The translations under genes and the position numbers were made by a program. From an uncultured Pseudomonadota bacterium (GTDB lineage: Bacteria; Pseudomonadota; Alphaproteobacteria; Rs-D84), in NCBI GenBank assembly GCA_902802115.1, contig CADCKW010000002.1:69744-133743 (forward strand): a stretch of DNA of 64,000 nt, read 5' to 3'. The notes beneath the pieces were generated by a model. It had not been told where the DNA came from. It ran no database searches and saw nothing but the letters and a program-made list of their open reading frames with translations. The stretch's first letter is position 1; the number at the start of each line of letters is the position of its first letter. Positions 35,199 to 52,885 of the stretch are shown here, piece after piece.

Positions 35199-35399
35199 TT
35201 AACTCCCTGCTTTGCCACGCGATATCATTTGTTCGATTTGTCGCACAAATGCCCGGTTCGATTCAGCCCAACGCAATTCGTTGTCTGTCGCGTTTGGTCC
35301 CAATGTGCGTTCCAATGTAATTTTACGCATGTGTTCCAATACCGCACGACCCGCAGGTGTCCCAAATGCACGCGCATATTGTTTTTCTATTTCTGTCAT
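35199..35399 (-). CDS. small phage-associated protein downstream of portal
   Basis: 66 aa, translationally coupled to the portal gene; its position matches the small conserved gene after the portal in GTA/HK97-type clusters. Confidence 0.4.
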   Translation of the reverse strand: MTEIEKQYARAFGTPAGRAVLEHMRKITLERTLGPNATDNELRWAESNRAFVRQIEQMISRGKAGS

Positions 35400-35409: not shown

Positions 35410-36633
35410 TTATATTCCCATGTCACGCGTCGCAATCGCAATTGGTGCCAGATATTTTAATTCCGCATCACTGTGTAATGATATCGGTTCTATAACACCA
35501 CGACGCGATAAAATCTGTAATCCGCGTTCGCATAATGGACGTATGAATTCATGCAATACGCGACCATATGTCGCACCCAAAATACGCATCATGTCTGCAT
35601 TGCGTGCCAAAACCTCGGTCGCGGTCATTTCGCGTTCCGCCAACAAACTTAATCTGTCCGCCAATAATGTATGACGAATACGGTCGCGCAAATCGTTTAA
35701 TATCAATTGCGACACATCAAAATCGGCGCCACTGTGTAATGGTGTTAAACCAGAACTGCCCACCGCTTTTGGTATTATCGCCCCAGGTGTCAGATTGATG
35801 TTTTGCAAATTTATAACACCATCATCGTCGGCCTGCCATATACCACTGACGGCGATGGTCGCATTTTTCAAAACCAATTCTACAACTTTGTTCGCCGTTT
35901 TGATGTCTGGCAATGCACGCAAAATTGGACTGCGACCGTATAATTCGCCACTTTGCACAGACCAACGAAAGATTAAATACGGATTCGTTTCAAATGTACC
36001 TGTGGCGACGATATTGTTTTCAATGTCGCCACCAACGTCCAACCATGCAACAAATTCCTTATCAATCAATGATTGAATCATACGTATCGGGGTGTCTGGA
36101 TTTTTTTCAAATTTATTGCGCAAATTCGATGGCGCGTTCCATGTTGGATATCGCAATAAAACATCACCAAATGTTATTGTCGTGGTGTGAAAAATCGCGT
36201 TAGGTAAAATGGCTAAATCTGTGACGGGAATCGCAGTAAATGAAAACGCAGATGCCGCCCCAATTGGATTTTCCGCCATAAACATACATGCAGTACCATA
36301 TATACATAAATCCATATATGCCTGATGCACAGTCGTATAAAAATTTGAATCATTTAAATTTGCACGCAACGCAGTTGTTGCAATTTCTGGGTCTGGGGAC
36401 ATATCACTTTCACGCACCAAATTTATCCATAATGATTCAGGTGGTGTTAAAAGTGTGTATATCGATGCCGCTAAATTATCAACTGCATCGGCAGCGGTGC
36501 CATCAAACAATGTCGCCGTTTCATTATCTGCAATTGGAACAGTATAACGGCGCGCTTCGTCCCAACGGTGCAACCATGGTTCGCGCAATGTTATCGCTTT
36601 GTTATACATTTTGGTTAAGTTTTGAATATTCAT
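35410..36633 (-). CDS. phage portal protein (HK97/GTA-type)
   Basis: 407 aa, a typical size for GTA/HK97-type portals (inference); immediately downstream of the terminase nuclease-domain fragment in the GTA order terminase-portal. Confidence 0.55.
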   Translation of the reverse strand: MNIQNLTKMYNKAITLREPWLHRWDEARRYTVPIADNETATLFDGTAADAVDNLAASIYTLLTPPESLWINLVRESDMSPDPEIATTALRANLNDSNFYTTVHQAYMDLCIYGTACMFMAENPIGAASAFSFTAIPVTDLAILPNAIFHTTTITFGDVLLRYPTWNAPSNLRNKFEKNPDTPIRMIQSLIDKEFVAWLDVGGDIENNIVATGTFETNPYLIFRWSVQSGELYGRSPILRALPDIKTANKVVELVLKNATIAVSGIWQADDDGVINLQNINLTPGAIIPKAVGSSGLTPLHSGADFDVSQLILNDLRDRIRHTLLADRLSLLAEREMTATEVLARNADMMRILGATYGRVLHEFIRPLCERGLQILSRRGVIEPISLHSDAELKYLAPIAIATRDMGI

Positions 36634-36653: not shown

Positions 36654-37700
36654 TTATACTTTGAAATTTGTGTTCGCATTATATGTGCGACATGTTTGTC
36701 CCAATGGGCGTATCGGTGTCGGTGTTATATTTATCGCCCCAGATACCGCGTCCAAACCATCATCATGATAAGAACTGCCAATTGGTGACCAACCTAACAT
36801 TTCAGCCATAAATGGTGTTCGCGTTATTCGTGTGTGCGCAAACATACGCGCCGCCCCCAGTAATGGTTCAAATGTGTTTAAAATTCTTGTTTCTTTTTTT
36901 GTATTATTTGTGATTTTTTGGACATATATTCCGCCACCACGTGATGCAATTTTGTCACCTAATATTTCTGGCAACGCATTTCCCAGCCCATTTGTTTCAA
37001 CCGTCACACGATGCATGTTATATCGTTCCAAGAAATTCAATACTAAATCGCATTGGTATGTCAAAGGCTGGGGATGGTCAGGTGGTGTCACCATATATTG
37101 TATGTCGTGCAAAAATATCCTGTGTGTTTTATCGTCACGAAAAATCAGTGCAATAACACTGGAATCTGTTTTTTTGTGTCCCAATGACGGGTCCCAATAT
37201 ACAGATGCACCTGTGATTTTTTCTGTGCCGATTTGACCTGTTAAATTATTAAATTCTGTGTCATATATTTGTATCATGCCAGGGTCCAAACGGACACGTT
37301 CCAATGGCATGAATTCCAGCATCATTTGCGCCATAAAATGATGTTCGCCCACAGATTTCCTTAATTCATTTATTTTTTCTGGGGTAAAAACATCTGGCCA
37401 GGCAGAGTTTCCGGCACTGTCCAAAATCGGCAGAAAAAATTTTTGAAATCCTGATAAAAAAGGCGTTGAAAATTGAAATTTTTTATTTACTATAACAGAC
37501 ATGGACTTTACCCCTAAGACTTTACCGACAAATCTCGAAGCCGAACAGGCTGTGTTGGCGGCTGTGTTGATGAATAATCGCGCATTGGAACGCGTTTCCG
37601 ATTTTTTAAAACCTGAACATTTTTCACACCCAGCGCACCAAGAAATGTATCGTTTGGCATTGCGTAAGTTTTCCATAGCCGAAGAATTCGATATCATCAC
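36654..37700 (-). pseudogene. terminase large subunit, C-terminal nuclease-domain fragment
   Basis: RNase-H-like nuclease signature (VYWDPSLGHKKTDSSVIALIF...), no Walker ATPase region; the ORF's 5' end overlaps the dnaB start by about 200 nt. Confidence 0.55.
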
Positions 37701-39075
37701 AATTAAAAATTACCTGCAACAACAAGGCATTTTGGATTCTGTCGGCGGTATCGATTATTTGACCGAGTTGTCCCGCGCCGGCGCAACAGTTGTTAATGTC
37801 GAACAATACGGACGCATCGTTTATGAAAATGCTATGCGACGCCAGTTAATTGAACTGGGGCAATCCATTATTGACGATGCATATATCGAAGATTTGGATA
37901 AACCTGTGGCACGTCAATTAGAGGTCGCAGAACAAAAGTTGTTCGAAATGGCGTCCAGTGGTGTCGCAGAACACGAACCAACAACGATTGGAAATGCTTT
38001 GCAATCCGCATTGGAAGAAGCACAAATCGCGTACCAGGCAGATGGAACATTGTCTGGTTTGACAACAGGATTAACCGAATTGGACAAGTCTATTAGTGGT
38101 CTGCACCATTCCGATTTAATTATTATTGCGGGACGTCCCGCCATGGGTAAAACAACACTGGCAATGAATATCGCATTCAATGCGGCAAATGCAATATTAA
38201 CAGGACGCGCAAATTCACATTACAAAGGTGCGGTTGCATTTTTCTCGCTTGAAATGTCTGCGCCCCAGTTGGCGACACGTGTTTTGTCATCACAAACAAA
38301 AATTCCGGCGACATCTATGCGTGAAGGTTCGCTGACCGATGAAGAATTTTTGAAAATGACCCAATATTCCAAGGCTATTTCACAAACACCGTTGGTTATC
38401 GATGATACCGCCGGTATGTCTGTGCCAATGATTCGAACACGCGCACGCAGATTGGCACGCAAATACGGTGGAATCGCGTTGATTGTAATTGACTATTTAC
38501 AGTTGATGATGTCGCCTGGCGGAAAACGCAGCGAAAATCGCGTGCAAGAATTGTCTGAAATTACCCGCGGATTAAAAATGCTGGCCAAAGAATTAGATGT
38601 GCCGGTTATCGCCCTGTCCCAGTTGTCACGCAGTGTCGAAATGCGCGATGATAAACGACCACAATTGGCAGACTTGCGTGAATCTGGTTCTATTGAACAG
38701 GACGCCGATATTGTTATGTTCACATATCGTGAAGAATACTATTTGGATAATCGTGACCCGTCACAAAGAATTTCAACAACAACATCACAAAATAGTGTCG
38801 AAACATGGCAAAAACGTCTGGAACGCGCACGCGGCAAGGCAGATATTATCATCGGCAAAAACCGTCATGGCCGTCCAGAAACTGTGCATTTGGCTTTCTT
38901 GGGCGATTATTGTTTGTTCGATAATTTGGACGAAATGGCGGCGCGGACAATGGACGCACCTTTGCCGGGTGATTTTGGAACAAACACACAAAATAATGTT
39001 GATTCTGGGCCGGCACCAACAGATGATAATGCGGGTGTTGATGTTTCGGCAATTCCTGATGATATTGCACTGTAA
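37501..39075 (+). CDS. dnaB: replicative DNA helicase DnaB (with about 50 aa C-terminal extension)
   Basis: N-terminal primase-interaction region LPTNLEAEQAVLAAVLMNN, Walker A GRPAMGKTT, typical DnaB motifs. Confidence 0.85.
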   Translation: MDFTPKTLPTNLEAEQAVLAAVLMNNRALERVSDFLKPEHFSHPAHQEMYRLALRKFSIAEEFDIITIKNYLQQQGILDSVGGIDYLTELSRAGATVVNVEQYGRIVYENAMRRQLIELGQSIIDDAYIEDLDKPVARQLEVAEQKLFEMASSGVAEHEPTTIGNALQSALEEAQIAYQADGTLSGLTTGLTELDKSISGLHHSDLIIIAGRPAMGKTTLAMNIAFNAANAILTGRANSHYKGAVAFFSLEMSAPQLATRVLSSQTKIPATSMREGSLTDEEFLKMTQYSKAISQTPLVIDDTAGMSVPMIRTRARRLARKYGGIALIVIDYLQLMMSPGGKRSENRVQELSEITRGLKMLAKELDVPVIALSQLSRSVEMRDDKRPQLADLRESGSIEQDADIVMFTYREEYYLDNRDPSQRISTTTSQNSVETWQKRLERARGKADIIIGKNRHGRPETVHLAFLGDYCLFDNLDEMAARTMDAPLPGDFGTNTQNNVDSGPAPTDDNAGVDVSAIPDDIAL

Positions 39076-39153
39076 TTTTTAATGCAGATTTTACTTGCCA
39101 AATATTTAAAAATTGACTAGACTTTTGTCAAGTATTTAACAGGAGTACCAATC

Positions 39154-40161
39154 ATGGCCCAAGAAGAAATCATTTTTCCTAATAATATTAGAACTATCCG
39201 TTTGAATAACGGTATGAAGATGACGGAATTGGCACGCAGAACAGGATTAAGTCTGTCGGCGGTGTCCAAAATCGAAAAAGGCGTGCGTCGTTTAAACCAA
39301 AAACAGTTGCTGAATATATGCAATATTTTGGGTTGCAAACTCTCTGATATTTTCATCAAAGAATCCGATGCAGTTGCAGGTAAATGGCAAACAGAAATCA
39401 AACGCCGTTTAAATGATAATGAACATGGTGGTTTAAAGGTGTTTGGTTCGGGTCTGCGTAAAATCCGTCAAATCAAAGGAAAAACTATTGCCCAGGCGGC
39501 ACGCGATGCAGGTATGACTTTGTCTGTGTATCACAAAATCGAAATCGGCCAACGCGAAATTTATAAAAACGAAGTTGAACCTTTGGCTAAATCTTTTGCG
39601 ATGTCGGCAAATGAAATGTTTGATAAAATCGCAAATTTATATAAATCTGGCGAATTGACCAAACAAATCAACAAGGTCAAAGAACGCGTTAAATCTGTAT
39701 TGATTCCTGACAATCCTGTATCTGGGATTGATATGCACGACGGTTTGTATGGTGCAAAATTGTATGACAGTGCGCGTCGTAAATTGGTTCCGGTGTTTGG
39801 CTCACCTGCGGGCAAATCAATTTCTTTCAAGAAAAACGACAAAATTATGATTGTCGCACCAGCTTCATTGGAAGGTCGCAAATCTATTTATGCGGTTATA
39901 CCAAATTCAAAACGCAGTGGTGGATTTATTCCGGAAAAATCATATGTGTTCGTTGATGCGGCACAACCTGCAAATGTTGGCGATTTGGCATTGTGTATGA
40001 ATGCGGATTTTTCAAAGTTAAATCCTGATGATGTTGTTGATGCACATATTGCGGTGGTTCATAGTGATTCCAAGGGCAAAATGTATGGCGCATTGGTTGA
40101 TCCCCAAGAAAAAATCAGCGCAACAACTATGCACAAAGTCGTTTTGATTTTGACCGAATAA
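39154..40161 (+). CDS. XRE-family transcriptional regulator with two helix-turn-helix domains
   Basis: Two Cro/CI-type HTH repeats (IRTIRLNNGMKMTELARRTGLSLSAVSKIEKG and LRKIRQIKGKTIAQAARDAGMTLSVYHKIEIG) plus a C-terminal domain. Confidence 0.6.
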   Translation: MAQEEIIFPNNIRTIRLNNGMKMTELARRTGLSLSAVSKIEKGVRRLNQKQLLNICNILGCKLSDIFIKESDAVAGKWQTEIKRRLNDNEHGGLKVFGSGLRKIRQIKGKTIAQAARDAGMTLSVYHKIEIGQREIYKNEVEPLAKSFAMSANEMFDKIANLYKSGELTKQINKVKERVKSVLIPDNPVSGIDMHDGLYGAKLYDSARRKLVPVFGSPAGKSISFKKNDKIMIVAPASLEGRKSIYAVIPNSKRSGGFIPEKSYVFVDAAQPANVGDLALCMNADFSKLNPDDVVDAHIAVVHSDSKGKMYGALVDPQEKISATTMHKVVLILTE

Positions 40162-40181
40162 TTTTTATACGGAGAGAGAAT

Positions 40182-40841
40182 ATGAAACCAAAAGCAAATC
40201 TGGTCGCACAAAGATTGGTTAATCTGTATCGCCAAGAGCATGTTATATTGGGTGGCTGGGCCGCGTTAAATCCGGTATTTGTCCAAGAAGCCACAGACGA
40301 TGTTTTGGACGAAATGGCAGATTTGCCGACTGGTAAATTATTGGTTCAACATATTAAAAATCTGCGCAGTGGTAAAACACCAATGGATTCAATCGAACGC
40401 GATTTGTTGCCATACGGTGGTTTAATGGGCGAATCTGGTGTATCAACCCCAATGTCAAACGAACAATGGCACGAATTAAGTGATGCATTGAATAATTTTG
40501 TTCCAAACCAACAAGGTCTTGAAAATCTACAAAAATTAGATGTTGTAAAAAAATTCGGTGACGAGTGGTTGGTTGGAATTAAAAACATGCTGTCTGGGGA
40601 CACAGAATTGGCTGAAAAATGGAAGGTTGTTATGCAAACTTGGCGCGCATATCATTTGTGGGATATGGCAACCCAGATAATCAACCAACCATTAACAGAA
40701 CGTATGCGCGCACAAATCCAAGCCGATATGCCAGAATACGAAACTTTCTTGCCAATGTTTGCAGAACCCGGCAATCAGTTGTTGGCAAAATTGCGTTCTT
40801 TTATGAGTGATAAAAAACGCCCAAGTTCAACCGATAATTAA
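40182..40841 (+). CDS. hypothetical protein
   Basis: ORF track only; RBS GGAGAGAG upstream. Confidence 0.4.
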   Translation: MKPKANLVAQRLVNLYRQEHVILGGWAALNPVFVQEATDDVLDEMADLPTGKLLVQHIKNLRSGKTPMDSIERDLLPYGGLMGESGVSTPMSNEQWHELSDALNNFVPNQQGLENLQKLDVVKKFGDEWLVGIKNMLSGDTELAEKWKVVMQTWRAYHLWDMATQIINQPLTERMRAQIQADMPEYETFLPMFAEPGNQLLAKLRSFMSDKKRPSSTDN

Positions 40842-40843: not shown

Positions 40844-41455
40844 TTATTCGCCCTGCTCTGTATTTTCTGTGCGATATATTGTATCGGTGGTGTGTGGTGT
40901 GCCGATATATATTATTGTGCCATGGGGCGACAAAATAAAATCTAATTCACGCAGTCTTTCACGCAGTGCCTCGCGTTTTTGTGGGGTATTGCATGTATTT
41001 GGAACCTCTACGTCATCACATATTATTAAATCTGCACGCATACCTGTTATATTACCATGGATTCCTTGGCATACAACAGACGGTTCGCGAATACCAATTG
41101 GACGATTTATTGTTATTTTATCTGCCGACCATTCTTTTTTCGATTTTGGAATTAAATCTGTGCAAAACGGGTGGTTTTCCAATATATTTTTTATATGTGC
41201 CACCATGCGTGATGCCAATGCGGTGTGTGCAGATAAAACCAAAATTCTGGTTTCTGGGTGTAAATATAAAACACATGCCGCAAAAATTCCAACAACTGTT
41301 GATTTGCCAGAATGACGAAATGCCATCAGCAAACCTTTACGATTATTAGATTCCAATACACCAAATAAAAATTTTAACATTTCGTAATGATGATGCGGTG
41401 TTTGGTATCCTAAAATTTTGTTCCATTGGTCTGCAAATTGTAATACAGGATTCAT
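40844..41455 (-). pseudogene. terminase large subunit, N-terminal ATPase-domain fragment
   Basis: Walker A AFRHSGKSTV, Walker B ADLIICDDVE; ends where the plus-strand insert begins; same strand and order as the nuclease fragment at 36654-37700. Confidence 0.6.
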
Positions 41456-41460: not shown

Positions 41461-41808
41461 TTATCCAACAATTTTATTAACACGCGACAACCAAGATTTT
41501 AATAAATTTGGTTTTTTGGCGGATGTGGTGGCTATTTTTGCCAAATTAGAATTCTTTTTTTCATTATATGGTTCGGCAATTTCATCACGCAATCTATTTA
41601 ATACCGCGCCAGATGTGGTGCTGGACGCACTGACGCCGGATGCGCCATATTTTGCGCGTTGTGTTGCCAAGGCTTTTTTTATTAAATTTGTTTTTGCGCG
41701 TTCGTCTTTGGCAATTTGTTGTAAAATTTCTTGCCGTTTATTGTTTGATGATTTTTTGTTTTTTTGATAATTCAAAACATCTGTGACATCTGATACAAGT
41801 TGTCCCAT
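41461..41808 (-). CDS. small phage protein upstream of terminase (possible small terminase subunit)
   Basis: Basic, helical; start taken at ATG 41808 with AAGGAG RBS. Confidence 0.3.
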   Translation of the reverse strand: MGQLVSDVTDVLNYQKNKKSSNNKRQEILQQIAKDERAKTNLIKKALATQRAKYGASGVSASSTTSGAVLNRLRDEIAEPYNEKKNSNLAKIATTSAKKPNLLKSWLSRVNKIVG

Positions 41809-41824
41809 TTTAAACTCCTTTGGA

Positions 41825-43537
41825 TTAAATTTCATATTGTCCGTAAATTGTGACAGATAACACCGTAATTGGTTCAGGTTCATTACCACTGATTTGCCAT
41901 GGTGATATCGATACATCAATTTGCGAACCTAAAAAATTCATAGATATATCGCCAGAAAAACCACTGGACGACGCATCATAAATTTCGTTTGGTAATTCCA
42001 GGCGCATATTGTTTATAAATGCCCCTTTGGTTTCCACCAGCCGTAAATTGACTTTGCGTAATCTTAAATGTTTTGGTCTGTGTCCTGAAAAAGACAAAGG
42101 TAATCCAGATGCGCAAAATTCTATATCATGCGTTCCAGAATCTGTCAATGCGGTGCCAGAAAACTTTGCTAATTTATATGTGCCTGTGTTTTCCAATACA
42201 ACATACGTTGTGTTTCCTATGACCACAACAGATTTAAATTTTGCATACGAACTGTATCGCGACCATGCAGAAATACCCAAACCAACATTTTGATTTAATA
42301 CCGCCATGGTGCCATCTGCATTTACCAAATATAATTGTTTTAACTCTTTGTTATACGTAATATCCACAGGCGAATTTAACATATGTTTTGAAAACAAACA
42401 TAAATCATCAGCATTATACCTTTCGCCAAGTGTATCCAATGACAATTTGCGAATATCACGCAGTGTGCTGGATACAAACACTGTATCACCTTCGATTTTT
42501 TGTGGTGGTAAATTACATATGGTTGGGCTGCCAACGGTGGTGTGTTGAACTATATTCATACTGGACGGTGTGACCGGTTGATTTGCGATTGCCCATTCAC
42601 CCGCAGATGTTAAAACCTGTAATTTATCACTGCTGATTAAACTGCAAACTTGCTGGCGTTCTTTGGATAACAAAGTTGTTGAAATTGCCTCGTCATCTAA
42701 GCCAGAGCCCGCATCAAAATTATGATAATCACCAACATGCGACATCCATATTCCCCCAGGTGTTGCGCGTGTTCCACCAAAAACTAATCTGTCTTGGTGA
42801 AATGTGATTGCAATTGGCCAACCATGTTTATCATCAAATGCACTTTCCAACCAATCTGTCACAGGGGCAGCCGGCAAAGAATATTCAATTGTGCTGGTGG
42901 CATAAACGACTGTGGGACTTATATATTCTGTAATTTGCCAATTTTGGTTATTAAAACGCAATATTGTGCCAATATTATCGGGTGTCCAATAATTTTTAGA
43001 TGCAGTTAATATTGCAGATTGTACGCCATGAATTCCGGCTGTGACAGATATGTTGATACCATACATGTCATCATATTTCATAAATGGCATACGCGGATAT
43101 ACACCTGTGGTGTCGTAAAAATTAAATTTATCCAGAGTAAAATCATTTCCTGATTTTTTAAATACATACGGACAATAATCAGGTTGAACAAAAACCAACG
43201 AATCACTGAAACCGGCGCATTGTAAATGTGTAAGTGCAGATTCTGGCCATGGGGAACTTATTATTTTCAACAATGTATCATTTGAATATACGGATACTGT
43301 ATTATTTGAAAACACCAAAATATAATGTTCTGTATTTGAAATATCATATGAAAAAATACGCGAAAAACCTGGCAATATGGCGACATCAACCAAACCGGCG
43401 CGACGCGTTAATCCCCCACCAGACAATACGTCCATATTTTCCAAACGTGACAGACCATAAATATCTTTGTTCAAATAAAATTCTGGCGCAATTTCACCAT
43501 GCGCAAATGAATTTTGCGTGTGTATAAATTCTGTCAT
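41825..43537 (-). CDS. phage tail protein (possibly T7 gp12-like tail tubular protein B)
   Basis: 570 aa, beta-rich; segment ITFHQDRLVFGGT...NF resembles a recalled conserved gp12 motif (inference). Confidence 0.35.
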   Translation of the reverse strand: MTEFIHTQNSFAHGEIAPEFYLNKDIYGLSRLENMDVLSGGGLTRRAGLVDVAILPGFSRIFSYDISNTEHYILVFSNNTVSVYSNDTLLKIISSPWPESALTHLQCAGFSDSLVFVQPDYCPYVFKKSGNDFTLDKFNFYDTTGVYPRMPFMKYDDMYGINISVTAGIHGVQSAILTASKNYWTPDNIGTILRFNNQNWQITEYISPTVVYATSTIEYSLPAAPVTDWLESAFDDKHGWPIAITFHQDRLVFGGTRATPGGIWMSHVGDYHNFDAGSGLDDEAISTTLLSKERQQVCSLISSDKLQVLTSAGEWAIANQPVTPSSMNIVQHTTVGSPTICNLPPQKIEGDTVFVSSTLRDIRKLSLDTLGERYNADDLCLFSKHMLNSPVDITYNKELKQLYLVNADGTMAVLNQNVGLGISAWSRYSSYAKFKSVVVIGNTTYVVLENTGTYKLAKFSGTALTDSGTHDIEFCASGLPLSFSGHRPKHLRLRKVNLRLVETKGAFINNMRLELPNEIYDASSSGFSGDISMNFLGSQIDVSISPWQISGNEPEPITVLSVTIYGQYEI

Positions 43538-43559
43538 TTCATTTCCTTTTTTTAAATAT

Positions 43560-44078
43560 TTAAAATCGTGCGTCTATCAAAGAAAATTGCCTGACCCCGG
43601 TATTAATATCTGTGGTGGAATCAATAAATTTCGCGTTTTGATATTCTGCGTCGTATAAGTTAATTAATATCCGCAACATCTGTTGATTGCCGGTCAAAGG
43701 CACACAAAATTCTATTGCCAATTTTGTTGCCGCCAATGATACAAAATAACTGGGGAAAAATTCTGGTTCAACACGTTGCAAAGCCAATATTTTTACACTT
43801 TGTGATTTCGATATAATTTTATTACCAATAATATGTCCATCACAACGCAATATACGCAAAACATTTGATGGTATTATAAATTCATCATTTTCATTTTTTT
43901 CAATTTCAAAATTTTTTGATGCAAAATGCCAAGGGTGTGTTGATATCAACGAATCAATCGTTGTGTCGTATAATGTTCGCGCCAATTGCGCAGATGCGGT
44001 ATCTGCATTTATCGATGTTAATGGTTGTTCGCCTAATTTTAATAATGCCATAGAACATAAATCTTGTTTAGTGACCAT
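43560..44078 (-). CDS. phage structural protein (possibly gp11-like tail adaptor)
   Basis: 172 aa between the capsid and the large tail protein; by position only. Confidence 0.3.
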   Translation of the reverse strand: MVTKQDLCSMALLKLGEQPLTSINADTASAQLARTLYDTTIDSLISTHPWHFASKNFEIEKNENDEFIIPSNVLRILRCDGHIIGNKIISKSQSVKILALQRVEPEFFPSYFVSLAATKLAIEFCVPLTGNQQMLRILINLYDAEYQNAKFIDSTTDINTGVRQFSLIDARF

Positions 44079-44159
44079 ATTGAAATCCTTTATAAAAAAA
44101 TAAAAAAAAGGGGCGCAAACAATCGCGCCCCAAATGGTTGGATTATATATTATTTATTT

Positions 44160-44390
44160 TTAAGCCAACGCACCAACAGATACCGCCGATGCCGAAACAG
44201 TAATTTTCTTGATTGCTGTGCTGTCCGATGCATTGATAATGATAATATCGCCAGTATTCATCAATGTAATAACATTATTGAAATAACCACTGGTGCTAAT
44301 CGCCGTCATTGTTTCGTCTGCGACATAGTGCCACAAAGTGAAACCATTTGCATACGCAATCACAGATAATTTTTTATTTTGAAATGCCAT
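44160..44390 (-). CDS. small phage structural protein
   Basis: 76 aa ORF between capsid and tail genes. Confidence 0.25.
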   Translation of the reverse strand: MAFQNKKLSVIAYANGFTLWHYVADETMTAISTSGYFNNVITLMNTGDIIIINASDSTAIKKITVSASAVSVGALA

Positions 44391-44428
44391 CTGTTTTTCC
44401 TTTTGGTTGTTTTGTTAAAGCGTTAAAT

Positions 44429-45253
44429 TTATGCATTATCTTTGCATTTGACACGAACGATACCGTCTTGGTCAATCAATACGGCACCTTGGGACATGCT
44501 GTTGCTGATAAAGTGCGCTGCACGATCACCATGCCAAGAAATATCTGTTTTGACCTCTTGACCACATGCATGACCGATACTGGACGCATGATATATAAAG
44601 CAACTGCGTTGTGTTGTGCTGGCAAGTGGCAAATCATTGTGCAAAATCCATGTAATGCCCATCCATTTGCGAGCCTCGTATCCGTTTATCATTGGATATG
44701 AATCACCAACATAATCAGCAGATACAAATTCATTTATGCCCAATAATTCGTTCCATTGATGCACACCAACCACAGCAAATCTGCGACCGTCATCAGGAAC
44801 ATCTTTTTCATTTAATTTTTCAATGGCTTCCAAAATCAATGATTTGGTTAAACCTGTTGAAAAATCTCCAACATACGCAGTGGCATTATCCATGGCGCTA
44901 ATAATCAATTCATCAGTTTTACGACCCAATGCATATGCACCCGCAGATGCAACAACACGACGTTCATCGACATTGGTTTTTAATTCGTCCAAAGAATCGA
45001 CCCAATCACCTGCATAATAATCTTGCAAAACACATTCCACAGGTTGATGATTCAAATTCATAACTGGGACAATACCATGTCTGGATTTTGTGCTGGCGGT
45101 GCCACGACCGATTGTTTGAAAAGTGGTTGATTGTCCAACAACACCGGTTTTGCTGCGAACGGTTGGACGCAATTTTGTGCCCATTTGCTGATATGCAAGA
45201 TGAACATCTGCTTCGAATTGTTTCACAAAAACTTGATCTATGGAAACAGACAT
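44429..45253 (-). CDS. phage major capsid protein (podovirus/T7 gp10-like)
   Basis: 274 aa; C-terminal FIYHASSIGHACG...AHFISNSMSQGAVLID resembles T7 gp10 FMHRSAVGTVK...AKYAMGHGG; follows a scaffold-like gene. Confidence 0.45.
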   Translation of the reverse strand: MSVSIDQVFVKQFEADVHLAYQQMGTKLRPTVRSKTGVVGQSTTFQTIGRGTASTKSRHGIVPVMNLNHQPVECVLQDYYAGDWVDSLDELKTNVDERRVVASAGAYALGRKTDELIISAMDNATAYVGDFSTGLTKSLILEAIEKLNEKDVPDDGRRFAVVGVHQWNELLGINEFVSADYVGDSYPMINGYEARKWMGITWILHNDLPLASTTQRSCFIYHASSIGHACGQEVKTDISWHGDRAAHFISNSMSQGAVLIDQDGIVRVKCKDNA

Positions 45254-45395
45254 ATTTATTCCTTTTTGTTAAAAATTAAATTCATGTGCAAAAATGCACG
45301 ACAATAAAAAAAGATTTTGTTTTTTTGATTATGCAAATGAAATATTTGCGTCATATAACAAAAATGCGGGGTCAAACGGTGATTATCCTGCAACA

Positions 45396-45430
45396 GTTTT
45401 AGTTAGACTTTTTTTCATCTAACTAAAATT
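45396..45430. promoter_or_regulatory. 11-bp perfect inverted repeat in the capsid-gene upstream region
   Basis: TTTTAGTTAGA-N10-TCTAACTAAAA between the histone-like gene terminator and the capsid start. Confidence 0.35.
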
Positions 45431-45439
45431 ATTACAAAA

Positions 45440-45466
45440 AAACCGCAACGAATTGCGGTTTTTTTA
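45440..45466. terminator. bidirectional terminator hairpin
   Basis: AAAAAAACCGCAACGAATTGCGGTTTTTTT. Confidence 0.55.
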
Positions 45467-45485
45467 AATCACTTTAAAAGAAAAA

Positions 45486-45842
45486 TTATTTTCTTTTAGC
45501 AGCTGGTTTTTTGCATGCGCATTTTTTTGCCGCTGGTTTTGCAGCAACTTTTTTTGCAACAGGCTTTTTAGCAGCAACTTTTTTCACAGCGACTTTTTTA
45601 GCAGCTGGTTTTTTCGCAGCAACTTTTTTAGCCGCTGGTTTTTTTGCAGCAACTTTTTTCACTGCTGGTTTTTTCGCAGCAACTTTTTTTACAGCTGGTT
45701 TTTTTGCAGCAACTTTTTTCACTGCTGTTTTTTTTGCAGCTGGCTTTTTAGCAGCAGCTGGTTTTTTAGCGGCAACTTTTTTTGCAGCAGGTTTTGCAGC
45801 TGCAGGTTTTGTTGCTTTCTTTGCCAAGAATGAAAATGCCAT
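45486..45842 (-). CDS. histone H1-like Lys/Ala-repeat DNA-binding protein
   Basis: 118 aa of (AAKKPA/VKKV) repeats, resembling Hc1/BpH1/AlgP-type proteins; encoded by about 30-bp tandem DNA repeats. Confidence 0.6.
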   Translation of the reverse strand: MAFSFLAKKATKPAAAKPAAKKVAAKKPAAAKKPAAKKTAVKKVAAKKPAVKKVAAKKPAVKKVAAKKPAAKKVAAKKPAAKKVAVKKVAAKKPVAKKVAAKPAAKKCACKKPAAKRK

Positions 45843-45969
45843 TCTTCTCTCCTTTTTATGTTTTGGTTAGAACAAAACTTTTTTTGTTCTTGATTCTATT
45901 TTAACTTAAACAAAAAAAATAGTAAAGAAGAATTTGATTTTTTATGAAATGTTTTTTCATTTTTTTATT

Positions 45970-46626
45970 TTATGAATACAATTTTTTAAAACCATTTTCA
46001 ATTTTTCTAACATATTCTGGATCTGCATCTCGCCAATATTTTGGGTCACGCATCATGCGTCGCAATTCATCATCTGTTAAATTTTCTGTCGCACCATTTT
46101 CCATTTCAACACGTGGTTCCATTGATTGCATCATTTGATATATGCCTTGGATTCCCTGGGCGCTGGCGCACAAAGATTCAAATGCATCATGTGGTAAAAA
46201 TTTTTCACCAAATGTATTTATCGCATTTAATGCATCGTTCATTTTTTCTTTGCCACCAAAAAATTTTTCCAATTTTAAAATTTCATTTGTTTCATTTTTT
46301 GCACTCATCAATTCATTTATCACAGGTGATAAAAATTTTTCTGCCAAACCATAAATTTGTTCAACTTGATTTTTTGTTAATCCAATATCATGAAATTTTT
46401 GTTTAATCGATTCGTCATCGAACAACGCATTTGATGGATAATCATTTGCATTTTCTGGCACACCAATTGCACGATTAAATTTTTCACGCGTGGCATCATC
46501 GGCATTATCATTTGGCACAGATACCATCGTTCCAATTTTCTTTTCCAATTCTGTATATGATTTTACCAACGCATCAACATTAACCGAACCGTCAGTGTTT
46601 TGAAATTTTTCTGGGATTTTTTGCAT
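45970..46626 (-). CDS. phage scaffolding/capsid-assembly-like protein
   Basis: Acidic helical protein directly upstream of the capsid; start at MQKIPEKF (46626) with AAGGA RBS. Confidence 0.4.
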   Translation of the reverse strand: MQKIPEKFQNTDGSVNVDALVKSYTELEKKIGTMVSVPNDNADDATREKFNRAIGVPENANDYPSNALFDDESIKQKFHDIGLTKNQVEQIYGLAEKFLSPVINELMSAKNETNEILKLEKFFGGKEKMNDALNAINTFGEKFLPHDAFESLCASAQGIQGIYQMMQSMEPRVEMENGATENLTDDELRRMMRDPKYWRDADPEYVRKIENGFKKLYS

Positions 46627-46822
46627 TGTTATTCCTTTTTGTTTCTGTTGATTTGCGCAGAAAATAAATTCCGCCAAGTGTAAATATCGATTGCAGTGTT
46701 ATAAACAAATCTGTATCACCAACCAAATAAGATGCGACGGCAGACAAAATTCCCACAGATGATATTATATATGTTCTGTGTCCTGCCAATGCGCCACCGC
46801 GAATAATTTTTTGCATTTTCAT
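46592..46822 (-). CDS. small two-TM protein (holin-like)
   Basis: 76 aa, two hydrophobic helices, basic C-terminus; adjacent to the cell-wall hydrolase. Confidence 0.3.
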   Translation of the reverse strand: MKMQKIIRGGALAGHRTYIISSVGILSAVASYLVGDTDLFITLQSIFTLGGIYFLRKSTETKRNNNAKNPRKISKH

Positions 46823-46835
46823 TTTTTATATTCCG

Positions 46836-47246
46836 TTATCGATAGAAAAACAAACCGTCCATTTCCAAAATATAACCACGTGCGATTGACCATGATGGAT
46901 TAAATTCATTGCGATGAAATTTGGTTGCACCAAAACAACAATCTGGTAAATTGTTTTTTAACATTCTGTCGCAGACACGCAAACACATTTGAAATGCTTT
47001 GGCATTTGGATTTACATTTAATAAATCATGATGCGTTGATTTTTTATCCAGACTTTCAAATAATCCAGACTGTGTAATAAAATCAGTTGGTGAAATTCCA
47101 TTAACACGCGCACCATTTGCAATCATCGAAGCCAAGGCTTCAACAACACGCAGTGATTGCCCACATGTTTCTGCATATATTACACGTGCAATTTTATAAA
47201 CATCGCGTGCAAAATCGTTTTGATGTTTAATCAGTGTTAATTGCAT
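46836..47246 (-). CDS. SleB-type cell wall hydrolase
   Basis: IARVIYAETCGQS...VEALASMIANGAR matches the Hydrolase_2/SleB family common in alphaproteobacterial phage and GTA clusters. Confidence 0.6.
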   Translation of the reverse strand: MQLTLIKHQNDFARDVYKIARVIYAETCGQSLRVVEALASMIANGARVNGISPTDFITQSGLFESLDKKSTHHDLLNVNPNAKAFQMCLRVCDRMLKNNLPDCCFGATKFHRNEFNPSWSIARGYILEMDGLFFYR

Positions 47247-47420
47247 TGTGGTATCCTTTGGTTAAAATAAAAAAGGCCACGAAAAATCGTGACCAAAAAA
47301 TATGAGTAAAAAAAATCACGCCAAATGTGACGCGTATAATTTCTGCTCTTGATGGTTTGTATTATATCACAAATCGAGTTGCAAGTCAAGAATATTTCAA
47401 AATACATCGGTGCATTATAA

Positions 47421-47450
47421 AAAAACACCTGATTTTCATCAGGTGTTTCT
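47421..47450 (-). terminator. family 3' hairpin terminator (copy B)
   Basis: Reverse complement AACACCTGATGAAAATCAGGTGTTTTTTT, identical to the stems at 34685 and 34838. Confidence 0.6.
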
Positions 47451-47518
47451 TGATTTAGAAACAAAAGCCTCTTGTTTTTTAATGGGAGTTGAATTCGGGG
47501 CTTTCTAAATCAAAACTG

Positions 47519-48325
47519 TCAATCTGCGCTTTCGATAATCTCGTACCAATGGGGTTGGCCAGCATCGTCTTCAACCAGCAGGCATTTTTTGCCGGCGGGG
47601 CAGGTTTCATCTGGTCGGGTTTGTTTGGTTGCCTGCAAATCCGCAATGGCTTTTGTCTGGTTAATTGTATTTGTGACAACCGACCGTATCGTTGCAATCG
47701 TATCGTTCAATTCCGTCACCACCGGACTAAACCGCGCGGTGTTATACGCGGTTGTTGCAATGCGGATTGGATTAGTGTTGGTGCATTGAGGAATATTTGT
47801 ATTTGGTATTGCTTCGCCTTCAACCATTATAATTTTATCTTGTGTTGTTATTGAAATATCTGATCCAGAATTCCAGTTGGTTATTGATACAACAACGTAT
47901 TCTGTATCATCTGTGGTTGTAAAAGTTGTCTGTTTGGGTTGGACACCGGAGCCCAAAGAAAATGTGCTTTTATAATTTACTTGCTTATCTGGTACAATAG
48001 CATCAGCTTCGGTTCGATATCCCGCAACTTCAAAACCGCATTTATCTGCGCCAGACGGAACTGTGATATCTGTATATAGTGTGTATTTTGTATTTGGATT
48101 TACTTTGACTAATTTTACTGGAACATTTTGATATCCGCCTCCTGCCGTGGCATGAGTAATAGTTATTGGGAAACTAAAATTACGCTGGGTTGTATATAAA
48201 CTTGGTATCCAATTTGCTGTTCCGCCATTAGACCAAGTATCCATAGCGGGCAACATATTACACAGTTCTGCCCAACCAGGCACAGCGAACAATAACCCAA
48301 TTAACCCCAATAATATCTTTTTCAT
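47519..48325 (-). CDS. variable secreted protein family, copy B (type-II N-terminus, conserved C-terminal module)
   Basis: Signal peptide MKKILLGLIGLLFAVPGWA; C-terminal IRIATTAYNTARFSPVVTELNDTIATIRSVVTNTINQTKAIADLQATKQTRPDETCPAGKKCLLVEDDAGQPHWYEIIESAD; lies directly upstream of, and on the same strand as, the phage-like block. Confidence 0.7.
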   Translation of the reverse strand: MKKILLGLIGLLFAVPGWAELCNMLPAMDTWSNGGTANWIPSLYTTQRNFSFPITITHATAGGGYQNVPVKLVKVNPNTKYTLYTDITVPSGADKCGFEVAGYRTEADAIVPDKQVNYKSTFSLGSGVQPKQTTFTTTDDTEYVVVSITNWNSGSDISITTQDKIIMVEGEAIPNTNIPQCTNTNPIRIATTAYNTARFSPVVTELNDTIATIRSVVTNTINQTKAIADLQATKQTRPDETCPAGKKCLLVEDDAGQPHWYEIIESAD

Positions 48326-48710
48326 GTTTTCTCCCCTTTTGGTTTTTTGGTATGTGACGTGATTTTTATTTTTTGCAATGCAAAAAATAAAAATACCGCT
48401 AACGAGAGAAGCGGTCGGGGTGTTAGAAAAATCAAAATACTACAATGATCCCGCATATATTGCCATATGCAGCCACCCCGCCACAAAAACCAGCGAGGAT
48501 TTACAAATCATTGGGAATATAATTCACATAATATGACACAAAAAAATTTTGCATCGATGCGAATTAATATCGATGCAAAACCAATTTCCGTTATAACAAT
48601 ACAAGAAACACGATTAACGAATCGTTTTCTGTTTTGGGATAACGATGCAGGTCTTGCATCGGTAGTATTTTGGGCTTTTCTAGGGCCCCGAAAACAATTC
48701 CCGTTGTTTT
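48326..48710 (-). promoter_or_regulatory. conserved family leader, copy B
   Basis: Reverse complement aligns with leaders A and C, including the AT-rich IR about 35 bp upstream of the ATG. Confidence 0.6.
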
Positions 48711-48759: not shown

Positions 48760-49440
48760 TTAAAACATTATTTCATCGCCGTATGCCAAAACATAACGCG
48801 TTCCACATCGTAAAACCAGCGCACCATTTTCATTTATACCAATTAATTCGGCGGTCGCACCACGATATTTAACCATCGTATTTAATCCGTTCGCCATTGA
48901 CATCCAACGTTCGCGAATCGTTGTAAAATCTGTGCGCAGGCATTTATCTATGTTTTTCATCAGGCGCGACAATACATCAGCAACCGAAACATCTGTGTAT
49001 TTTTGAAGCTTTGTTGTTTTATATTCTGGAACAGTTGGATTTGTTGCAACATTTATACCAATACCGACAATTACAAATCGACCATAATATTCAATTAAAA
49101 TCCCAGATATTTTTTTCCCATCAACCAATATATCGTTTGGCCATTTAATACTGGGGCTGACACCGAAATTTATTAATGTGTCCGCCACAGCAATCGCCAT
49201 TGCATAAGAAATTTTTGCATCGCGTTCAGGCGCAAAAAATATAAAACTGGCATATAAATTTCCATGATGCGACACCCATTTGCGTCTAAAACGACCGCGA
49301 CCATCACTTTGCGCATTTGCCACAACAACACAATGGTCTTTGGCACGACCACACGCAATTAAATCAATCGCAGTTGTCTGCGTACTGGGGATTTTATCGT
49401 ATGAAAAAACATTATATTGTGCCAAGTTTATAAACCCCAT
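48760..49440 (-). CDS. birA: biotin--protein ligase, catalytic domain (group I, no HTH)
   Basis: DGRGRFRRKWVSHHGNLYAS (GRGRRGR-type motif); 226 aa. Confidence 0.8.
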   Translation of the reverse strand: MGFINLAQYNVFSYDKIPSTQTTAIDLIACGRAKDHCVVVANAQSDGRGRFRRKWVSHHGNLYASFIFFAPERDAKISYAMAIAVADTLINFGVSPSIKWPNDILVDGKKISGILIEYYGRFVIVGIGINVATNPTVPEYKTTKLQKYTDVSVADVLSRLMKNIDKCLRTDFTTIRERWMSMANGLNTMVKYRGATAELIGINENGALVLRCGTRYVLAYGDEIMF

Positions 49441-49888
49441 TTTCCAATATTATGAAATCACGACCACATAATTTGCGTAATGTATAAATTGCTGTATCAA
49501 TCGGGTGTGTCGCGACCCCAGGCATAAAACCCAATGCATGTTTTAATTCCGCCCCAGACATACCACCGGTGCGCCACAGGGACACAATTATATTTTTTTG
49601 CACATTTGACAGTTGTGGAACATTGTCATGAAACAACGCAGATAAAATATTCGTGTTGTCAGCATAATTCAAAATCAAAGATTTTAACTCTGTCACCGTC
49701 AATGGCGAATCAGGCATAATTTCATCAAAATTAACCCCTAAAACATTTGGGCTGTCTGTCACCGTTGCACCCAGTTCATTAAAAATATGGCGCCATATCG
49801 ATTGCGATGAATAAATCTTGATTCCATTTAACATATTTTTAGCATAGCAAAAAATAATATTGTGTCCATAAAAAACGCAATACAACAC
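49412..49888 (-). CDS. hypothetical protein
   Basis: ORF track only; its end overlaps the birA start by 29 nt. Confidence 0.3.
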   Translation of the reverse strand: MLYCVFYGHNIIFCYAKNMLNGIKIYSSQSIWRHIFNELGATVTDSPNVLGVNFDEIMPDSPLTVTELKSLILNYADNTNILSALFHDNVPQLSNVQKNIIVSLWRTGGMSGAELKHALGFMPGVATHPIDTAIYTLRKLCGRDFIILENGVYKLGTI

Positions 49889-51293: not shown

Positions 51294-51429
51294 AAAAAAA
51301 ACCTAGGTTTAAAAGCAACAACTTTTTTCAAAAATTTTAAAATTTGCTTTTTTCGTAAAAACAATGCGTTATTCAAAATCGCAATTTGCCAGAGGTGGTG
51401 TCGAAAAAAACCTAGGTTTTTTGTATAAT
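51294..51429 (+). promoter_or_regulatory. promoter region with two AAACCTAGGTTT palindromes and an extended -10 (TGTATAAT)
   Basis: The perfect 12-bp palindrome AAACCTAGGTTT occurs at about 51297-51308 and 51407-51418, the second abutting TTTTTGTATAAT. Confidence 0.5.
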
Positions 51430-51489
51430 TTCAATATAGTGAAAAACCGCGGATTTCCGCCAGTTTATAAAATCGAGAGAGTTGCGAAA

Positions 51490-52365
51490 ATGTCTGTAAA
51501 ACGTGCATTTTTTAGTGTTTTTCAAAAAATCATGGTGGTTTGCTGTGCCATATTTTTTGGTTTTGCCAACGCATTTTCTGCAAATTTACCAAGCGGATAT
51601 ACAGAGTTAGAATATATCCAATCCAGTGGATCACAGTATATTGATACGAGGATTAAACCAGACAGTAATTTCTCTTATGAAATAAAGTTTAGTGGGTATA
51701 CGGTTCCAACTAGTGGTAGTGCAGAACATATTATGTTCGGCGAAACAGCTGCCGGTTGGAATGATATGATTGGTATTAACCAATCAAGAGCAGGTAGTCG
51801 TTCTAATGTTATTCCATATATAAAATATGATGGTGTTGCGTGTAGTTTAGCACAACAAACCAATGGTATATTAAAATTGACGCCTGTTGGATTGTATTTT
51901 AATGGCAATTTAGTGTATTCAAAAACCCCAAGTAGTTTTGGTACAGAAACTTATTCAATATATTTATTTGCTGCGAATCGTCAAGGCACTGCTTCTTACT
52001 TTACACAATATCGTCTTGAAAACTTTAAAATGTGGAACAATGACGTGTTGGTTGGTAATTTTATACCAACCAAAGATTCAAACAATGTGGTTGGTATGTA
52101 TGACACGGTTAGTGGTCAGTTCTTTACGAACGCGGGCACAGGTGAATTTATTGCCGGTCCAGAGGTTTCAATCCGCATTGCCACAACCGCATATAATGCG
52201 GCGCGGTTTAACCCAGTTAAAACAGATTTAAATAGCGCGGTGGCGACGATACGTGAAATCGTCACAAAAACGATAAATCAAACCGCCGCAAGAAAATATT
52301 TATGGATTGCCAGCCGGATACACCCCGTTGGAATATATCCAATCCAGTGGATCACAGTATATTGA
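51490..52365 (+). CDS. variable secreted protein family, copy D1 (type-I N-terminus; C-terminal module truncated and frame-fused into next cassette)
   Basis: Distinct signal peptide MSVKRAFFSVFQKIMVVCCAIFFGFANA then LPSGYTELEYIQSSGSQYIDT; the conserved C-terminal module runs only to ...TINQTAA before the frame reads into the next cassette. Confidence 0.55.
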   Translation: MSVKRAFFSVFQKIMVVCCAIFFGFANAFSANLPSGYTELEYIQSSGSQYIDTRIKPDSNFSYEIKFSGYTVPTSGSAEHIMFGETAAGWNDMIGINQSRAGSRSNVIPYIKYDGVACSLAQQTNGILKLTPVGLYFNGNLVYSKTPSSFGTETYSIYLFAANRQGTASYFTQYRLENFKMWNNDVLVGNFIPTKDSNNVVGMYDTVSGQFFTNAGTGEFIAGPEVSIRIATTAYNAARFNPVKTDLNSAVATIREIVTKTINQTAARKYLWIASRIHPVGIYPIQWITVY

Positions 52366-52885
52366 TACAGGCTTTGCTCCAACTGCGAACTATAAGCACA
52401 CGATTGTGTTCGAAACACTTTCTAGTGGTACTTGTTATTTGTGTGGTACAGGGTCTGCTGGGCAACGTTCTGGTAATGTTAAACTTACTGGCAATAATAT
52501 TCTTGATATTTATAATAACGATTCGGGAACTGGTTCCGCTGCTATATTGGGAAATGTACAATTAGCCCAAGGAAAAAATACATTGGTGCTGGACTTGCGT
52601 AACGCGAGCAAGAGTTATGTATCATTAAATGGGGTAGATTTGGAAACAACAAATACGAAAACATACATAACATCATCTTTATCTGTGACTCTATTTAGTA
52701 GTGGTGGTGCGAGTTCTTTGCCATTGAGAATATATGAATCTATAATTGAGCAAAATGGTGTTGTTATTGCACATTTCGTCCCAGCAAAAAATTCATCTGG
52801 TGTGGTTGGTATGTATGACACCGTCAATAATCGGTTTTATCAAAATGCGGGTACTGGGGAATTTACCGCGGGTCCAGAAATGTAA
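52307..52885 (+). pseudogene. variable secreted protein family, cassette D2 (no leader or signal peptide, no C-terminal module)
   Basis: Begins in-frame at (L)PAGYTPLEYIQSSGSQYIDTG without ATG, RBS or signal peptide and ends ...GTGEFTAGPEM; overlaps D1 out of frame. Confidence 0.5.

Follow-up and report, generated by a model that had tools for sequence, protein, structure and literature searches.

Should the phage-like gene cluster found in an uncultured alphaproteobacterium of the order Rs-D84 be regarded as a prophage, as a decaying remnant or as a particle-forming device that the host has made its own? The cluster lies in a stretch of 64,000 nucleotides (hereafter the window; GenBank assembly GCA_902802115.1, contig CADCKW010000002.1, positions 69,744 to 133,743 of the forward strand). 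It is a T7-like unit for head, tail, packaging and lysis functions that occupies 12.5 kb of the minus strand, from position 47389 to position 34895 of the window. A preliminary description had delimited it as 41461-47246, a range which covers only about half of the unit, since genes continue up to an 85-amino-acid (aa) protein and a terminator at 34895-34911. We judge it somewhat more probable than all other readings together that the locus is an anciently domesticated T7-like podovirus module resembling gene transfer agents (GTAs), which would produce DNA-filled tailed particles that move host DNA and are released by lysis. The locus is thus most likely not a prophage but a GTA-like device that has not been described before.

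A scan for capsid relatives, with one genome per species, returned 496 stretches encoding a close relative. The comparisons presented here use the best 80 of these 496, ranked by capsid match (81-100% capsid identity). All 80 belong to uncultured gut or rumen Alphaproteobacteria, many of them labelled Candidatus Enterousia. Enterousia is part of the order Rs-D84, whose genomes measure about 0.75-1.0 Mb and lack most biosynthetic pathways; the genomes considered here are streamlined (about 0.9 Mb, with about 90% coding density), and the organisms are inferred to depend on partners (PMC12306168). In the literature searched, neither a description of the element nor any link of Enterousia, Rs-D84 or RF32 to GTAs was found.

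The genes of the minus-strand unit are the following.

46836-47246, minus strand: endolysin, SleB/cell-wall-hydrolase-like, 136 aa (phrog_938, E 1.9e-7), kept in 67 loci
46592-46822, minus strand: holin-like protein, 76 aa, conserved in position
45970-46626, minus strand: scaffolding protein of the T7 gp9 family (PF05396, E 7e-12), start M18
45486-45842, minus strand: Lys/Ala-repeat histone H1/Hc2-like protein, 118 aa (Pfam HC2, 50.3 bits)
44429-45253, minus strand: major capsid protein, 274 aa (PF19821, E 9e-73; phrog_3437; dN/dS 0.088)
44160-44390, minus strand: small virion-module protein p76, 76 aa (phrog_18004, E 3e-12)
43560-44078, minus strand: head-to-tail adaptor, tail tubular protein A/gp11-like, 172 aa (phrog_394, E 9e-28)
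41825-43537, minus strand: tail nozzle, tail tubular protein B/gp12-like, 570 aa (phrog_376, E 4e-79)
41461-41808, minus strand: basic protein p152, 115 aa, start M38 of a 152-aa open reading frame (ORF)
40844-41455, minus strand: TerL-N (terN), ATPase core of the large terminase (TerL), 203 aa (phrog_38, E 4e-44, profile positions 283-459; gp19 residues 48-222)
36654-37502, minus strand: TerL-C (terC), remaining ATPase domain and T7-type RNaseH-like nuclease, 282 aa (phrog_38 positions 483-710; PF22530; dN/dS 0.21)
35410-36633, minus strand: portal, T7-type head-to-tail connecting protein, 407 aa (PF12236, E 2.6e-77; dN/dS 0.084)
35199-35399, minus strand: Bbp19-like small phage protein, 66 aa (PF25181, E 1e-9)
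34938-35195, minus strand: p85, 85 aa, last gene of the operon, with an N-terminal hydrophobic/transmembrane segment and a coiled-coil-like C-terminus

All the minus-strand genes listed in the preliminary description were borne out by the ORF listing and by Pfam/PHROG scans. Their sizes stood less well, as several starts had been over-extended: stops in orthologues place the true starts at M67 (terC), M38 (the supposed 152-aa protein, which is thus 115 aa long) and M18 (scaffold) of the listed ORFs.

The origin of these genes can be traced to one type of virus. The portal, scaffold, capsid, adaptor and nozzle families make up the virion module set of T7 (portal gp8, scaffold gp9, adaptor gp11, nozzle gp12), and comparison with solved structures points the same way. 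The nozzle profile matches the chain named Tail Nozzle in 8CK1_A (E 3.7e-67). That of the adaptor matches orf17 of 9EFK (E 1.6e-15) and the connector protein 8CK1_E (E 3e-14), with weaker matches to chains named tail tubular protein A or adaptor. When fused, the two TerL halves align to residues 48-222 of the T7 gp19 structures 4BIJ/8DGC (E 1e-24 to 4e-27). The podovirus-like scaffold, capsid and tail tube recognised previously are therefore supported (PF05396, PF19821 and the nozzle and adaptor profiles), and the three regions for which homology searches had been proposed (44429-45253, 41825-43537 and 43560-44078) correspond by profile matches to phage capsid, nozzle and adaptor. In contrast, the assignment of portal and terminase to a GTA/HK97 type must be abandoned, as the portal is a PF12236 T7 connector and TerL is gp19-like (PF22530). 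Because the T7/podovirus type is common to portal, terminase, scaffold, capsid, adaptor and nozzle, the cluster is not the mosaic it had been taken for; judging by these family matches, all its parts derive from a single T7-like podovirus lineage.

Among cultured phages, pelagiphages come nearest, with 33-42% capsid identity. Nearer relatives, at about 60% capsid identity, are uncultured; among them are L149 and other IMG/VR contigs, and MT838907 from a human-gut virome. In L149 and MT838907 the order is portal-Bbp19-scaffold-capsid-p76-adaptor-nozzle-small proteins-intact TerL, and L149 also carries a collagen-like fibre and a CI/S24 repressor. Since portal and Bbp19 stand before the scaffold in the phage contigs and behind TerL in the window, the permuted gene order noted earlier is real. 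Homologues of p76 also occur in related phages (L149, L165, Hodr). The 115-aa basic protein is weakly similar to a 149-aa protein of L149 that matches a PHROG internal virion protein family, and is possibly an internal virion protein. No family was matched by the holin-like protein in the Pfam/PHROG scans; its two hydrophobic/transmembrane segments and charged C-terminus were recognised by reading the sequence. The p85 protein, conserved in at least 50 loci, gave weak matches to PHROGs without function and reads as spanin- or holin-like.

Is the unit still a virus, or part of the host chromosome? Every locus long enough among the 80 retrieved shows the same order, birA-lys-holin-scaffold-K/A-capsid-p76-adaptor-nozzle-p152-terN-[p219, HTH, dnaB]-terC-portal-bbp19-p85, where K/A is the Lys/Ala-repeat gene and HTH encodes a helix-turn-helix regulator. 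In related loci birA is directly upstream of the endolysin gene. On the other side, the window and more distant genomes (L162-L164) alike have a housekeeping block, frr-uppS-cdsA-rseP-bamA, and the cluster site thus lies between birA and the frr-bamA block in the window and in the related genomes examined. Across the 80 species, the roughly 1,400 gene instances contained only 2 mid-gene stops. Comparisons between species show saturation at synonymous sites (pS about 0.7), and the insertion is therefore older than the divergence of these species. At non-synonymous sites, pN is 0.10 for the capsid, 0.145 for the portal and 0.175 for terN, to be compared with 0.157 for dnaB, and dN/dS, computed on unsaturated pairs only, ranges from 0.08 to 0.35 over all genes. 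Every gene of the cluster, both TerL halves included, is under purifying selection. Moreover, structural-gene distances track those of dnaB and birA combined (Mantel r = 0.86, a value reached by none of 2000 permutations).

The shared locus and gene order, the intact ORFs, the low dN/dS and the co-divergence with host genes lead us to exclude both a decaying remnant and a mobile prophage as working explanations, and we are close to certain that the locus is domesticated. The earlier proposal of a domesticated or decaying particle locus, rather than a functional prophage, is thereby upheld in its first half: the fixed site, the purifying selection and the lack of integrase and phage replication genes agree with domestication. 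The rarity of mid-gene stops and the range of dN/dS contradict decay. Two class features of GTAs are also found here, namely phage-derived structural, packaging and lysis genes that reside in a chromosome without phage replication or integration genes, and vertical inheritance with the host under purifying selection.

This raises the question of how such genes are kept silent and then expressed. Candidate control sites, other than those of the histone-like gene, are listed here.

47361-47389, minus strand: late-operon promoter (TTGACT, 17 nt, TGnTATAAT; 11/12 matches, extended -10)
47275-47334, minus strand: leader 3' of the promoter and 5' of the first gene; two intrinsic-terminator hairpins in tandem, both followed by a T-run
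45435-45466, minus strand: conserved terminator after the histone-like gene
about 45326-45428, minus strand: three-stem-loop RNA-like element upstream of the capsid gene, with covariation
44110-44131, minus strand: strong intrinsic terminator at the boundary of the capsid module and the tail genes; terminator-like site in 59/80 loci
34895-34911, minus strand: terminator closing the operon

The TTGACT-17-TGnTATAAT site upstream of the endolysin gene is the only near-consensus promoter of the region. TTGAC[TA] is found upstream of lys in 67/67 related loci, with an extended -10 in 66 of them, and the -35 hexamer is invariant in their alignment. The leader hairpins and their T-runs precede the first ribosome-binding site (RBS). 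At least one terminator-like site is present in the leader of 65/65 loci; both hairpins are kept although their sequences differ, and the stems covary, with compensatory changes in 10/11 predicted pairs. Further terminators follow the Lys/Ala gene, the capsid-p76 module and the last gene, and another lies just 5' of the capsid RBS. A promoter followed by tandem terminators ahead of the first gene implies that the late operon would be under antitermination control.

Downstream of the leader terminators, the three-stem-loop element of about 100 nt shows compensatory changes in 26/32 pairs according to RNAalifold (40 species), and in that alignment stem-loop A keeps its pairs 107-113 and 115-116 without exception. 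Neither the leader nor this element matched an Rfam family at the gathering threshold; an E-value search returned only matches below that threshold, which were driven by the terminators. The element is a candidate for a new cis-regulatory RNA or small RNA. Upstream of the late promoter, a conserved protein of 158 aa (49412-49888) without family match lies upstream of birA, and overlaps it, in all related loci. The C-terminal half of this protein resembles by eye a winged-helix DNA-binding domain, and it could be a regulator of the adjacent promoter.

The most unusual part of the locus is its terminase, whose two ORFs are separated by a plus-strand operon, dnaB-HTH-p219 (37501-40841), composed as follows.

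37466-37493, plus strand: dnaB promoter-like site, abutting the dnaB ATG
37501-39075, plus strand: dnaB, cellular-type replicative helicase (NF006606, TIGR00665)
39154-40161, plus strand: 335-aa regulator with two XRE-type HTH domains and a C-terminal domain (PF01381 twice; dN/dS 0.11)
40182-40841, plus strand: p219, all-alpha protein, last gene of the inserted operon, stop 2 nt from the terN stop

TerL-N carries Walker A, Walker B and motif III, is closed by a stop codon about ten residues past motif III and has a dN/dS of 0.115. TerL-C begins with the segment that, in T7 gp19, follows the motif III helix. The large terminase consists of two ORFs in all 70-75 loci covering the region, unlike gp19, which is a single polypeptide. 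The inserted operon is butt-joined, antisense, to both halves with zero intergenic space. At one end, the start codons of dnaB and terC overlap as CATG in 69/71 genomes and a Shine-Dalgarno-like GGGAG or AGGGG motif for terC is located within codons 3-5 of dnaB; at the other end, the stop codons of terN and p219 overlap or are at most 7 nt apart in nearly all genomes. It follows that late transcription must cross p219, HTH and dnaB antisense to reach terC and the portal gene, barring an undetected internal promoter.

The dnaB promoter-like site falls within the first terC codons, where third-position variability is strongly reduced: third-position entropy is strongly lowered over the first 30 codons of terC, which overlap this promoter, and lowered in only the first 15 codons of dnaB. 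An internal promoter for terC within dnaB, looked for in these profiles, gave no clear signal. Since the -10 of the promoter-like site ends 8 nt before the ATG, the dnaB mRNA is probably leaderless. From its model scores, this dnaB is a cellular equivalog and not a phage-type gene: it reaches 599 bits with NF006606 (cutoff 540) and passes TIGR00665, whereas the phage_DnaB model stays below its cutoff. The HTH regulator shows 69-92% identity to the window protein in related genomes. An S24 repressor of LexA/CI type was considered for it and discarded, as its matches are limited to the HTH domains. For p219, none of 1,088 homologues is annotated; the AlphaFold2 model is all-alpha (pLDDT 80), and its comparison with the PDB gave no fold match, and no Q-like fold.

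Which came first, the split or the insertion? In L133, a distant AT-rich relative (capsid 68%), TerL is split at the same point by a spacer of 335 nt that contains no dnaB, and in the phage relatives L149 and L136 TerL is intact. The split is therefore older than the dnaB insertion. Because both halves have been kept under selection since then, the split TerL may be regarded, as these data suggest, as a working two-chain enzyme. Other accounts of the split were rejected. Programmed excision fusing terN and terC would require a recombinase, of which there is none; the junctions share a single word, an A-rich one of 10 nt that 2% of shuffles also attain, and excision would leave the terN stop codon in place. 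A split intein is dismissed as the new termini reach only about 10-12 residues past the homology, which is too short. The Arthrobacter cluster AN paper, considered as a precedent for a two-gene large terminase, concerns lysis genes. In L133, the spacer (9058-9391) holds several hairpins and a terminator-like stem, with no gene and no Rfam match, and two prepilin-like genes are found between terC and the portal gene (10341-11267).

From these elements a mechanism can be proposed. The near-consensus sigma-70 promoter would fire constitutively and transcripts would halt at the two leader terminators. A putative antitermination factor or signal would allow RNA polymerase to pass the leader terminators as well as those inside the operon, which follow the histone-like gene, precede the capsid gene and follow the capsid module. 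The resulting read-through transcript would yield endolysin, holin, scaffold, capsid, adaptor, nozzle, TerL-N, TerL-C, portal and the small proteins, its synthesis running antisense through dnaB-HTH-p219 before TerL-C and the portal are reached. TerL would work as two polypeptides, one bearing the ATPase core and the other the rest of the ATPase domain together with the nuclease, and would fill procapsids with DNA. Since the searches yielded no small terminase, integrase or phage replication function, this DNA would probably be the host's.

Several points weigh against this GTA-like reading. The element is known from genes alone and its host organisms are uncultured. The choice of the 80 loci by capsid match inflates the conservation of the capsid relative to that of the other genes. 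Classically, GTAs package pieces of essentially random host DNA that are too small for the whole encoding locus; with an expected capacity of about 35-40 kb, a T=7 capsid of this family would have room for more than the 12.5 kb of the cluster, and the element may fail to conform in this respect. No antiterminator was found, whether a Q-family gene, a defined Q-binding/pause element or a GafA/GafYZ-type regulator. Pfam/PHROG scans of the cluster revealed neither a recognisable small terminase nor large internal core/ejection proteins of the gp14-16 class. Most importantly, no tail-fibre gene is recognisable in the cluster of the window, as had been reported from the first reading, together with the lack of replication and integrase genes. 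A gene for a 181-aa T7 tail-fibre N-domain is found between p152 and terN in about 35/76 related loci (L133 has a 237-aa version, PF03906) and is absent from about 41/76, the window among them, all with a gap of at most 87 nt. Unless the genome encodes a fibre at another place, the particle of the window would thus have none. A simple GTA model meets its main objection here, as adsorption and DNA delivery are left unexplained. The secreted-protein paralogues that flank the cluster (see below) were considered as fibres and rejected: they have no PHROG/Pfam match, their N-termini are signal-peptide-like, and they are absent from this place in most species.

The absence of a fibre therefore keeps a function other than transfer under consideration. 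A domesticated particle could release DNA or other contents to kin or to a partner, kill, or serve as a capsule for DNA storage or dispersal; capsid, portal and terminase would then be kept, and delivery into recipients would not be the selected function. The clade of the window without any fibre, the loss of the fibre stub in about half of the species, the absence of ejection proteins, the conserved lysis cassette and the partner dependence inferred for the hosts (PMC12306168) would all fit such a role. However, purifying selection (dN/dS 0.19-0.22) maintains the DNA exit channel formed by adaptor and nozzle, and the retention of both TerL halves and of the portal is hard to justify without DNA packaging and release through a tail. 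We consider a non-transfer function unlikely, but deserving of serious attention.

An ordinary prophage or satellite, still mobile, site-specific next to birA and perhaps helper-dependent, is very improbable. IMG/VR does list the locus as a provirus (181 matches on contigs of 10-13 kb from many metagenomes), and real related phages exist (MT838907, and L149 with its fibre and CI/S24 repressor). Nevertheless, Pfam/PHROG scans of the cluster found no integrase, excisionase, replication initiator or other phage replication gene, and no att repeats were found at the cluster. The host-gene junctions are identical in all species, a cell-type dnaB sits inside the element, and neither the co-divergence with dnaB and birA nor an insertion older than the species agrees with mobility.

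Least credible of all is a functionless remnant retained only through the essential dnaB trapped inside it: the interrupted terminase, the missing fibre, core proteins and recognisable small terminase, and the G+C content of the cluster (0.34-0.37 against 0.40-0.43 in the flanks) might be so explained, but a trapped dnaB would protect dnaB alone, all 15 phage-derived ORFs are intact and constrained across synonymously saturated species (an assembly artefact of metagenome-assembled genomes being an improbable cause of this in 80 independent assemblies), compensatory changes accompany the conservation of promoter, terminators and RNA stems, and streamlined genomes of about 0.9 Mb should shed useless DNA (PMC12306168).

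Within the GTA-like reading, a bolder proposal, which we hold to be rather doubtful, is that the dnaB-HTH-p219 insertion serves as a commitment switch instead of being accidental. Convergent transcription of the dnaB operon would, in ordinary cells, block leaky read-through to TerL-C and the portal. In a self-sacrificing producer, antiterminated late transcription running antisense through dnaB would cut the supply of helicase and, at the same time, complete the packaging machinery, with TerL as a natural two-subunit motor-nuclease. The locus would then be a podovirus-derived GTA hard-wired to the arrest of host replication, and perhaps the main recombination route of an obligately partner-dependent lineage with a genome below 1 Mb.

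Whatever its function, the cluster accounts for over 1% of a genome (about 0.9 Mb) from which most biosynthesis has gone, which implies a strong selective benefit. Gene exchange countering genome decay is one candidate for this benefit, and a speculative one. The locus is also of interest for its naturally split large terminase, for an essential replication gene placed antisense within a late operon, and for a conserved promoter/tandem-terminator switch. Its listing as a provirus in viral databases (IMG/VR) would lead to host DNA being misassigned as viral.

The histone-like gene in the middle of the head genes has control sites of its own, in addition to the terminator at 45435-45466.

45898-45926, minus strand: promoter-like site, a conserved upstream element
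45870-45898, minus strand: palindrome AAGAACAAA-N4-6-TTTGTTCT, immediately 3' of this promoter-like site and conserved across species

The palindrome could be an operator or a 5' stabilising hairpin. About nine tandem 30-bp repeats, prone to length variation, had been reported in this gene. Tandem Repeats Finder gives a 30-nt period with 8.1 copies, and the length of the protein indeed varies from 81 to 164 aa across species. A Lys/Ala-rich ORF is the longest ORF of the scaffold-capsid spacer in 67/69 Enterousia loci and is absent from L133 and from the phage relatives. The protein has a conserved N-terminus (MAFTFLK) and a Cys-containing C-terminus; its Pfam HC2 score exceeds the cutoff of 40 bits, this match being driven by composition. 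It may be a packaged DNA-condensing protein. Because the gene has its own conserved promoter-like site and terminator, the product could just as well be a nucleoid protein of the cell whose gene, like dnaB, came to reside in the cluster.

Around the cluster, at least five paralogous proteins share signal-peptide-like N-termini, an LPxGYTxLEYI motif and a C-terminal domain of about 85 aa, without Pfam/PHROG match (copies at 33593-34869, 47415-48430, 51364-52885 and 59249-60246). Two of the copies flank the cluster as inverted repeats (261 nt at 88% and 73 nt at 97% identity), an arrangement by which the entire cluster might be inverted. Most other species lack the copy located between birA and the endolysin gene, which is therefore a lineage-specific insertion. 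Near further copies of this secreted family, a weak VirB8-like protein and a T2SSE/T4SS-type ATPase (53221-55415 and 61738-62715) may belong to a secretion or pilus system. The frr-uppS-cdsA-rseP-bamA block (27780-33213) is inverted in the lineage of the window relative to more distant Enterousia (L163, 1-4195). In L162 (contig of 958.6 kb), two extra genes stand between the last cluster gene and frr (2851-4195). One encodes a lysozyme (GH108) that carries a PG_binding_3 domain and a weakly Mu F-like region, and would be a second, phage-type lysin added at the edge of the cluster.

How does the locus compare with known systems? With the podoviruses of the HTVC010P/pelagiphage Hodr type, MT838907 and L149, it shares homologous portal, scaffold, capsid, p76, adaptor, nozzle and TerL. 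These phages differ in having fibres, large internal proteins, a repressor, replication and other early genes and an intact TerL, whereas the Enterousia locus keeps only about 9 kb of the phage set, has portal and Bbp19 behind a split TerL, and is immobile. In T7, the terminator T-phi follows gene 10, and the Enterousia terminator after the capsid module occupies the same position. The upstream end recalls lambdoid late control, where a strong promoter (PR') is immediately followed by a terminator (tR') and then by an operon of lysis and head genes, read-through requiring antitermination by Q. Here too a promoter and terminators precede an operon with lysis genes first and head genes after. 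The differences are that the terminators are two in tandem and that further terminators and structured RNA lie inside the operon.

Independent domestications of phages into GTAs are, to our knowledge, only a handful, nearly all siphovirus-like. The Rhodobacter capsulatus GTA (RcGTA) is itself siphovirus-like. Like this GTA and that of Caulobacter (CcGTA), the Enterousia unit is a chromosomal, vertically inherited, phage-derived head-tail-packaging cluster under purifying selection, without replication or integration genes and with release by lysis, here deduced from the genes. It is not homologous to RcGTA, its parts being of T7/podovirus type, and it differs from RcGTA-type elements by its split TerL, its internal dnaB and the absence, in our searches, of a GafA/GafYZ-type regulator. 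The CcGTA cluster is expressed via activation plus anti-termination (PMC11150451), and processive antitermination controls two known alphaproteobacterial GTAs (PMC11150451; bioRxiv 10.1101/2024.11.20.624540). In the Bartonella element (BaGTA), a long leader attenuates the capsid operon, which the Q21-like processive antiterminator BrrG turns on (bioRxiv 10.1101/2024.11.20.624540). BaGTA is likewise a domesticated phage module of a host-associated alphaproteobacterium. However, its phage ancestry is different, it includes a run-off replication module, of which none is seen in the Enterousia cluster, and no Q-like protein was identified in the latter.

A parallel in morphology is the GTA-like element of the gut bacterium Faecalibacterium prausnitzii (FpGTA), inferred to be podovirus-like, with encapsidated DNA shown experimentally and with two loci that include baseplate, fibre and receptor-binding genes in a Firmicute host (PMC12946183). 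Compared by description, the Enterousia element is instead a single T7-type alphaproteobacterial cluster, without fibre or baseplate and known from its genes. With FpGTA (Firmicute, 2026) as the only podovirus-like case in the literature searched, the Enterousia locus would represent a separate, T7-derived domestication.

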